Below are positions 37,834 to 38,532 of a stretch of DNA of 64,000 bases, in pieces (position 1 is the stretch's first letter; every line of letters starts with the position of its first letter). The notes under the pieces were generated by a model that had not been told where the DNA came from, made no database searches, and was given only the letters and a program-made list of their open reading frames with translations. The DNA lies in the sequence record PP925844.1; one strand, given 5' to 3'. Made by a program: the position numbers and the translations under genes. The DNA comes from Escherichia phage Elenatom.

Positions 37834-37850
37834 TTTATTCTCCTCAGTAG

Positions 37851-37890
37851 TAGATAGGGTAATAGTATCACTACCCTATCTAAAAGTAAA
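37851..37890 (-). promoter_or_regulatory. PeSL-like cassette: early-type promoter with -10 in loop of 9-bp stem (TAGATAGGG/CCCTATCTA)
   Basis: Inverted repeat flanking constant core aatagtatcac; -35 TTTACT 17 bp away. Confidence 0.55.
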
Positions 37891-37891
37891 C

Positions 37892-38125
37892 TTATTTTTT
37901 ACGAAAAATTGATTTATTTTCTGCTGCCCATTTTTCAATAACTGCAGCAGGACCAGTAACAACAATTTTATCACCGTAATCTTCTGCGGCGAGTTGACCG
38001 AAATTATCTAATGCATCACGAAGAACTCCATGAGGCATTTCACCCATTTTATCTTTCTTGCCAGTGTAAATAAACTCAACTTTTACATCAGCAGTTTCAG
38101 CAATAAATTCTTGGTAAGTTTTCAT
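37892..38125 (-). CDS. Internal protein (IP) with canonical capsid-targeting sequence
   Basis: Starts MKTYQEFIAE (T4 capsid-targeting consensus with protease cleavage motif); 77 aa; early promoter plus stem-loop upstream. Confidence 0.6.
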   Translation of the reverse strand: MKTYQEFIAETADVKVEFIYTGKKDKMGEMPHGVLRDALDNFGQLAAEDYGDKIVVTGPAAVIEKWAAENKSIFRKK

Positions 38126-38151
38126 TTTGATTTCCATTTGGTTTTGTTTTG

Positions 38152-38188
38152 ATAGGGTAATAGTATCACAACTAAAACCCTATGTAAA
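38152..38188 (-). promoter_or_regulatory. PeSL-like cassette: early-type promoter with stem ATAGGGT/ACCCTAT
   Basis: Same constant core, different stem sequence. Confidence 0.55.
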
Positions 38189-38201
38189 CAACTTTGTGAA
38201 A

Positions 38202-38459
38202 TTATTTTAAATCTTCTAATCGTTTCTTCATCTTAGAGCCATTTTTAGCAATTTCTCCTGCATCGGAGCATAATGCTAAAAGTGCTTTAACTTTAGTTTG
38301 GTCTCCTTTAAAAGATGAAGGATCGACCGCAGCAGCAAGTTCTTTAATACGAGAGAAAAGACGCTCAGCTTCAGCTAAAGCCATTCCAAGCTTTACTTCC
38401 ATACCGTGGGAAGATTCAGTGATAGTAGTTTTTGTAGCAAACTCTTTGAAAGTTTTCAT
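38202..38459 (-). CDS. Internal-protein-like protein with variant capsid-targeting sequence
   Basis: Starts MKTFKEFATKTTITE; 85 aa; own promoter plus stem-loop. Confidence 0.5.
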   Translation of the reverse strand: MKTFKEFATKTTITESSHGMEVKLGMALAEAERLFSRIKELAAAVDPSSFKGDQTKVKALLALCSDAGEIAKNGSKMKKRLEDLK

Positions 38460-38481
38460 TTTTATTTTCCTAATTAATTTT

Positions 38482-38519
38482 GATGAGGTAATAGTATCAC
38501 TACCTCATCAGTATGTAAA
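38482..38519 (-). promoter_or_regulatory. PeSL-like cassette: early-type promoter with stem GATGAGGTA/TACCTCATC
   Basis: Same constant core, third stem sequence (compensatory changes). Confidence 0.55.
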
Positions 38520-38532
38520 CAACTTTGTGAAA

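Follow-up and report, generated by a model that had tools for sequence, protein, structure and literature searches.

Two adjacent internal-protein genes in the ipI slot

We analysed a 64,000-nt stretch of DNA from Escherichia phage Elenatom (PP925844.1; the window) and found that it carries, on the minus strand between genes 57B and trna.4, two adjacent small genes that are almost certainly ip5 and ip6, which encode the established T-even internal head proteins Ip5 and Ip6 and are organised as promoter/stem-loop (PeSL) cassettes. The ip5 open reading frame (ORF; 38202..38459, 85 aa) matches phrog_3499 ('internal head protein', 1.2e-49) and ip6 (37892..38125, 77 aa) matches phrog_8111 ('internal virion protein', 1.2e-52), and both products are homologous over their full length to proteins named Ip5 and Ip6. 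Ip5 is 99-100% identical to T2 Ip5 and 92-95% identical to RB70 Ip5 (Q38378), and its mature part is 100% identical to that of T6 Ip5 and of Ip5 from RB51, RB14, RB3 and JK08. Ip6, annotated as such in JK08 and fFiEco06, is 98.5-100% identical to the Ip6 proteins of T6 (98.5%, mature part) and fFiEco06 and 78% identical to Ip6 of VR20/VR7. The mature Ip5 sequence occurs in 494 phage records (~268 at 90% identity or above, 226 of RB69 type at ~54%) and that of Ip6 in 230 records. An exhaustive search of 1.84 billion representative proteins with an Ip6 family HMMER profile returned only seven matches, namely five short Ip6 relatives, the three full-length ones of which begin with the leader described below, and two weak matches to longer proteins.

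The propeptides of T4 internal proteins (IPs) comprise 10-19 residues and are removed by gp21, which cleaves after the glutamate of an L/I-x-E motif; in the IPIII leader, to which the IPII leader is identical, residues 4 and 7 serve targeting and residues 8 and 10 processing (PMC9026906). Ip5 begins with MKTFKEFATKTTITE (codons 1-15, 38415-38459) followed by SSHG, and Ip6 with MKTYQEFIAE (codons 1-10, 38096-38125) followed by TADV. Both leaders have the targeting determinants (Y/F at position 4 and F at position 7) and end in a gp21 motif, ITE at residues 13-15 of Ip5 and IAE at residues 8-10 of Ip6. The Ip6 leader combines Y4, F7, I8 and E10 and is identical at all ten positions to the T4 leader as quoted in the initial annotation, by which Ip6 can be likened to the injected, non-essential and strain-specific IPII and IPIII of T4. 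The Ip5 leader is of the IPI type rather than an odd variant: T4 IPI begins MKTFKEFTSTTTPVSTITE, its leader also ends in ITE, and because the structure of mature IPI (IPI*; 2JUB) spans residues 20-95, beginning directly after ITE, T4 IPI is cut right after this motif. Cleavage at the equivalent sites would fall after ITE15 in Ip5 and after IAE10 in Ip6, and the predicted mature products, Ip5* (70 aa, isoelectric point (pI) 9.2; 38205-38414) and Ip6* (67 aa, pI 6.5; 37895-38095), resemble the small IPI* (76 aa, pI 9.0) in size. When the whole window was scanned in six frames for M-x-T-[YF]-x-[ETD]-F, only the Ip5 and Ip6 ORFs matched, which argues that the paired leaders are not a chance occurrence; no other ORF in the 64 kb bears a leader of this kind.

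The start of ip6 deserves comment, as a mechanical ORF call places it four codons earlier, at the ATG at 38137 (MEIK..., 81 aa), and public records are split between the 77-aa form (T6, JK08) and the 81-aa form (MEIKMKTYQ...; FL44, Pinarejo). The ATG at 38137 has no Shine-Dalgarno sequence, whereas the ATG at 38125 is preceded by GGA at a distance of 7 nt, and we favour the 77-aa form on the basis of the leader logic and the position of the putative Shine-Dalgarno sequence.

Beyond the leaders, Ip5 and Ip6 are unrelated to each other. BLASTP aligns only their first 11 residues, and the predicted folds differ, with a helical hairpin of two long helices for Ip5* (AlphaFold2 (AF2) pLDDT 71) and a ferredoxin-like beta-alpha-beta-beta-alpha-beta fold for Ip6* (AF2 pLDDT 83). 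Pfam and NCBIfam gave no significant match for either mature part, PDB profile searches returned nothing below E = 0.03, and a search of 5.8 billion proteins yielded nothing but T-even internal proteins. A remote relationship of the mature parts to a functional family was rejected on the Pfam, NCBIfam and PDB results, which also held no match to a known structural or metabolic protein, and neither part showed homology to a known GmrSD inhibitor. The initial annotation had described two adjacent genes with capsid-targeting leaders and L/I-x-E motifs, each behind its own promoter/stem-loop and with mature sequences unrelated to each other, and it is borne out throughout: both ORFs are present on the minus strand within 37841-38530, a PeSL repeat precedes ip5 as well as ip6 (see below), and the products share their N-termini alone.

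Over 901 nt, the locus matches many Tequatrovirus genomes at 99.7-100% identity, among them FL44, Pinarejo, PYPS2T and JK08, and the window is Tequatrovirus DNA. The left border of the locus is 57B (38533..38991, minus strand), a member of the Acb1 anti-CBASS phosphodiesterase family (Pfam PF23474, 2.7e-60) placed here also on the T4 map, and its right border is trna.4 (37648..37833, minus strand), which encodes a 61-aa predicted membrane protein (phrog_1692; T4, T6 and JK08 annotation). Since ipI, the sole gene annotated between 57B and trna.4 in T4, sits exactly there, ip5 and ip6 occupy the classic polymorphic ipI slot, one of the two T-even IP hotspots. The other hotspot lies between denV and e, where T4 carries ipII and ipIII. 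In the window, denV (29704-30120, Pfam Pyr_excise) and the lysozyme gene e (30180-30674) are separated only by a 59-nt promoter-bearing spacer (30121-30179) that harbours neither ipII nor ipIII; because denV directly abuts e, this second hotspot is empty.

The same gene order, 57B-Ip5-Ip6-trna.4, is found in T6 (MH550421), whose record notes that 'Ip5 ... replaces ipI'. T6 shares the flanking genes and the intergenic elements with the window, from which it differs by a few nucleotide substitutions in the PeSLs and by nothing of substance otherwise, and the same proteins occur in T6 and its relatives RB70, T2, RB14, RB51, JK08 and the VR phages. With this layout known from a classic phage and from far more than a hundred sequenced relatives, its occurrence here adds little as a finding in itself. 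Ip5 and Ip6 were reportedly first described in a study of ipI-locus polymorphism (Repoila et al. 1994, EMBO J 13:4181).

Promoter/stem-loop elements and cassette exchange

Three direct repeats (D1) of ~71 nt each lie on the minus strand before ip5 (38478..38548), before ip6 (38147..38217, the reference copy) and before trna.4 (37849..37919, a 61% copy that closes the ip6 cassette). Each contains TTTAC[A/T]-N17-TACTAT with TG before the -10: the -35 and -10 hexamers are TTTACA (38514-38519) and TACTAT (38491-38496) upstream of ip5, TTTACA (38183-38188) and TACTAT (38160-38165) upstream of ip6, and TTTACT (37885-37890) and TACTAT (37862-37867) in the third element. The promoter consensus of the PST/T4 PeSLs, TTTACW-N17-TAYWAT (PMC4122927), is matched exactly by all three and has 14 matches in the window versus 0.24 expected, every one of them on the minus strand. 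Moreover, each repeat forms a hairpin that carries the -10 in its loop or beside it (-18.1 to -20.8 kcal/mol, z -3.3 to -3.8). The ip5 element forms a 10-bp hairpin at 38481-38510 with the -10 in the loop (-20.5 kcal/mol, z -3.3), that of ip6 lies within 38144-38191 (-18.1 kcal/mol, z -3.4) and the third spans 37852-37881 (-20.8 kcal/mol, z -3.8). In a comparison of only five sequences, the ip5-type and trna.4-type copies of the window, T6 and T2, 96% of the stem cells are paired and three of the ten pairs change on both sides. A terminator scan detected no intrinsic terminator at the PeSLs, whose hairpins have no T-tract.

PeSLs have been defined as strong early promoters combined with stem-loops that attenuate upstream transcription (Arbiol 2010, PMC2839356; Comeau 2014, PMC4122927), and they are concentrated in hyperplastic regions, where they mediate modular shuffling (PMC2839356; PMC4122927). 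The authors of these studies credit Repoila et al. 1994 with similar observations at the T4 IP locus (PMC4122927). Promoter and terminator activity was measured in reporter assays for the PeSLs of RB49/phi1 only (PMC2839356). The three repeats in the window share with the published cassettes the early promoter, the stem-loop overlapping the -10, the 3' Shine-Dalgarno sequence and start codon, the multiple copies flanking variable small ORFs and the breakpoints inside the element, with no difference found, and they appear to be PeSLs as defined in 2010 and 2014, with predicted promoter and terminator activity. By extension from the RB49/phi1 assays, each ip gene would be transcribed from a sigma-70-type early promoter within its PeSL, whose hairpin probably attenuates read-through from upstream, while the third element would drive trna.4 rather than an IP gene.

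Aligning the window with T6, T2 and T4 at this locus revealed that homology breaks exactly at the PeSLs. The element after 57B is common to all four phages, the copy upstream of ip5 being identical to the T4 element upstream of ipI, and it is followed by ipI in T4 and by ip5 in the window, T6 and T2. After the second element come ip6 in the window and T6 and an unrelated 102-aa gene in T2, the product of which starts with MKTFKEFINE|AAAP, before all four phages rejoin in the element preceding trna.4. The repeats therefore flank the variable ORFs, and the breakpoints between phages fall inside them. The T2 middle PeSL is a hybrid that switches partner within the loop/-10 region, a type of crossover also reported for the RB49 PeSLs (PMC2839356). 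The T4 element before trna.4 is a hybrid too: its 5' half corresponds to that of the second element of the window, the ip6 PeSL, and its 3' half to that of the third. The number of cassettes in the slot is one in T4, two in T6, T2 and the window, and five in MT446392.

The repeated DNA extends into coding sequence on both sides. At their 5' ends the ip5 and ip6 PeSLs overlap the last codons and the stop of 57B and of ip5, respectively, and a second repeat, D2 (44 nt, 77% identical), takes in the first ~10 codons of the two ip genes. The ~70-nt PeSL repeats and the conserved leader codons would together provide homology for recombination by which whole IP cassettes are inserted, deleted or swapped, as the mapped breakpoints suggest.

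We also observed that ip5 and 57B share their last 12 nt, GAT TTA AAA TAA (D-L-K-stop; 38202-38213 and 38533-38544, minus strand). The C-terminal tripeptide of Ip5 may belong to the recombination unit rather than to the functional core of the protein.

Probable packaging and processing, and possible targets, of Ip5 and Ip6

T4 internal proteins are packaged in the head and injected, and IPI* blocks the restriction enzyme GmrSD (PMC3012670; PMC9026906), in agreement with the description of IPI* in the initial annotation as an injected inhibitor of a type IV restriction system. T4 IPI, the inhibitor of GmrSD-CT596, also provides a close precedent for the genes studied here, with which it shares the slot, the PeSL (identical to that of ip5) and the Ip5-type leader ending in ITE. 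On this precedent and on that of IPIII genetics, the N-terminal capsid-targeting sequences would take Ip5 and Ip6 into the scaffolding core of the prohead, where gp21 would cut after E15 of Ip5 (ITE|S) and E10 of Ip6 (IAE|T), as confirmed by 2JUB for the cut in IPI. The mature proteins, of about 7.5 kDa, would stay in the head with the DNA, enter the cell with it and, by analogy with Ip1, Ip2 and Ip3, most likely neutralise a first-response host defence, each being specific for a single variant. We consider this account likely when taken as a whole, from the identity of the genes to the fate of their products; for packaging and processing in particular we regard the case as strong.

Comparative data support the notion that the leader is itself under selection. 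In distant Ip6 relatives MKTYQEFINE or MKTYQEFMAE is retained at a mature identity of ~33%, ITE is invariant across Ip5 variants, including one with a 5-residue deletion in the leader that still reads ITE|SSHG, and the Ip5 homolog of RB69, ORF127c (46% overall identity), has a divergent leader, MKTYMNFYQNLSLNE, that nonetheless starts with MKTY and ends in L-x-E. These observations also bear on the proposal that Ip5 and Ip6 are unpackaged, early cytoplasmic accessory proteins, with a leader-like N-terminus that merely rides along in the recombination repeat. Such a proposal could draw on the early-type promoters before ip5 and ip6 with no late promoter nearby, on the reach of D2 into the first codons and on reports that internal proteins work when expressed in the host without injection (PMC12373910; PMC9391042). 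However, the amino-acid sequence of the leader is kept where its DNA has changed, as in ORF127c, which has no PeSL and still reads MKTY...LNE, and the terminal I/L-x-E is invariant through leader indels. Moreover, T4 ipI lies behind an identical PeSL and its product is proven to be packaged, processed and injected (PMC3012670). We therefore give this proposal hardly any credence and retain the view that Ip5 and Ip6 are packaged internal proteins.

The natural candidates for what such proteins might do in the infected cell come from T4, in which each of Ip1, Ip2 and Ip3 inhibits a GmrSD variant of its own without cross-protection, IPII and IPIII being the inhibitors of GmrSD-ECOR21 and GmrSD-ECOR17 (Silas et al. 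2025, PMC12373910). IPIII is required on ECOR17, and its leaderless form is active in the host cytoplasm (Srikant et al. 2022, PMC9391042). The proposal in the initial annotation that the two products are candidate injected anti-defence factors coincides with the standing hypothesis in the field, which has in part been tested already (PMC12373910). That reading is correct but not new, as the genes, the leader and cleavage logic and the PeSL cassettes have all been published. What remains of value is the identity of the targets of Ip5 and Ip6.

Several observations weigh against the packaging of Ip5 and Ip6 or against an anti-defence role. First, a literature search returned no direct evidence of Ip5 or Ip6 in virions or in cleaved form and no virion proteomics; we infer their packaging, cleavage and injection from sequence. 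Second, since the leader codons lie partly in D2, recombination rather than selection could explain some of the N-terminal similarity. Third, no TATAAATA late promoter is present on the minus strand between 39574-39581 and the ip genes, and the sequence seems to leave unexplained how the proteins are supplied during prohead assembly; protein present at that time would have to come from persisting early/middle transcription, from a stable early protein or from read-through across the hairpins. Fourth, Ip5 holds two further L/I-x-E motifs, LAE at residues 28-30 and IKE at 38-40, inside the predicted first helix, and the product would be fragmented if these were accessible to gp21. Fifth, the predicted mature folds are generic and offer no functional clue. 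Finally, when ip4-10 from T4-like phages were assayed against further active GmrSD systems, no reproducible inhibition was seen (PMC12373910, Supplementary Fig. 9), and T2 and T6 are restricted by both GmrSD-ECOR21 and GmrSD-ECOR17 (PMC12373910). Because T6 encodes Ip5 and Ip6, and T2 encodes Ip5, and both phages are still restricted, we infer that the native proteins do not neutralise these two enzymes. Here we equate the ip5 and ip6 of the published screen with the present sequences on the strength of the shared nomenclature. The LAE motif at residues 28-30 of Ip5 is kept as LVE in the RB69 homolog.

A rival reading is that the main role of Ip5 and Ip6 lies in the head, where they would act in bulk to assist core assembly or to neutralise and organise the packaged DNA. 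Heads form at about half the usual rate in T4 IPIII mutants, whose burst is about 40% of normal (PMC9026906), yet T4 lacking all three internal proteins is viable (PMC9026906). Lysines of internal proteins contact DNA phosphates (PMC3012670), and mature Ip5 is basic; mature Ip6, however, is near neutral and would be a poor DNA counter-ion. A phage without ipII and ipIII between denV and e might rely on its only leader-bearing products, Ip5 and Ip6, for bulk protein, and the screen of ip4-10 found no defence target for them (PMC12373910). Against this, all three T4 internal proteins, IPIII included, have defined anti-restriction targets (PMC12373910), and the content of the slot varies, as does the number of cassettes (one to five), with mature parts that diverge fast under a conserved leader, a pattern that fits an arms race rather than a conserved structural job. 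A primarily structural role thus strikes us as improbable, and we lean, by a small measure, towards anti-defence as the main function of Ip5 and Ip6.

Ip1-Ip3 were matched to GmrSD variants between 2007 and 2025, and ip4-10 were screened without success (PMC12373910). We regard a GmrSD-family target for Ip5 and Ip6 as possible but doubtful. Since the outcome was negative with every GmrSD variant tried and T6 and T2 are sensitive to two of them, Ip5 and/or Ip6 could instead neutralise a first-response defence other than GmrSD, for example a modified-DNA-sensing nuclease or a sensor of DNA entry, an idea that we put forward as a long shot. If it were correct, T-even phages would inject proteins against more than type IV restriction, and Ip5 and Ip6 could serve as bait for the discovery of a new defence system. 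In this context two points are added by the present analysis. Native Ip5 and Ip6 evidently give T6 no protection against either GmrSD-ECOR21 or GmrSD-ECOR17, the enzymes targeted by the T4 proteins encoded at the denV-e hotspot, and that hotspot is empty in this lineage, leaving ip5 and ip6 as the only leader-bearing genes in the 64 kb of the window.

Neighbouring genes and related loci

The minus strand carries every gene in this part of the window. Upstream, past 57B, lie 57A, gene 1 (deoxynucleoside monophosphate kinase) and gene 3, and downstream of ip6 follow trna.4, trna.3 and trna.2 and then a cluster of 11 tRNA genes. Towards the other end, seven large ORFs at 55211-63141, which we take from their position to be genes 12 to 17, precede the end of the window, and the prohead protease gene lies outside it. 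This protease is a core gene of T4-type phages (PMC9026906).

An ORF of 224 aa lies between gene 3 and gene 2 (40630-41304, minus strand), a position at which it is absent from T4 and JK08. It has an HH...N...H stretch resembling an HNH motif and no Pfam match at E <= 0.001, and it is annotated in FL44 as a (split) homing endonuclease.

The tRNA cluster (35845-36862, minus strand) comprises genes for Arg, His, Asn, Tyr, Met, Thr, Ser, Pro, Gly, Leu and Gln, a set unlike that of T4 (8 tRNAs and segB) and unlike the arrangement in FL44. Because the cluster differs, the window is not simply FL44 despite the 100% identity of the IP locus.

The anti-defence gene 57B/Acb1 directly adjoins the internal-protein slot, a point in favour of an anti-defence role for Ip5 and Ip6 as well; in many GenBank records 57B is labelled 'RNA ligase' or 'hypothetical'.

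The largest array seen at this slot is that of MT446392.1, a T4-type phage of 171.6 kb, which has five tandem leader-bearing genes between Acb1 and trna.4 (locus L010, 1157-2755). Their leaders are NIKTYNEFLVE, MKTFNEFFNE, MQTFHEFLVE and, twice, MKTYQEFINE; the last two genes lie behind 96-nt repeats that are 95% identical, and the last of all encodes a distant Ip6. In RB69, the Ip5 homolog ORF127c (locus L005, 1438-1719) is encoded in the e-denV hotspot instead, with its start codon overlapping the end of e and without a preceding PeSL. This RB69-type version of Ip5 is present in about 226 Mosigvirus-type records.

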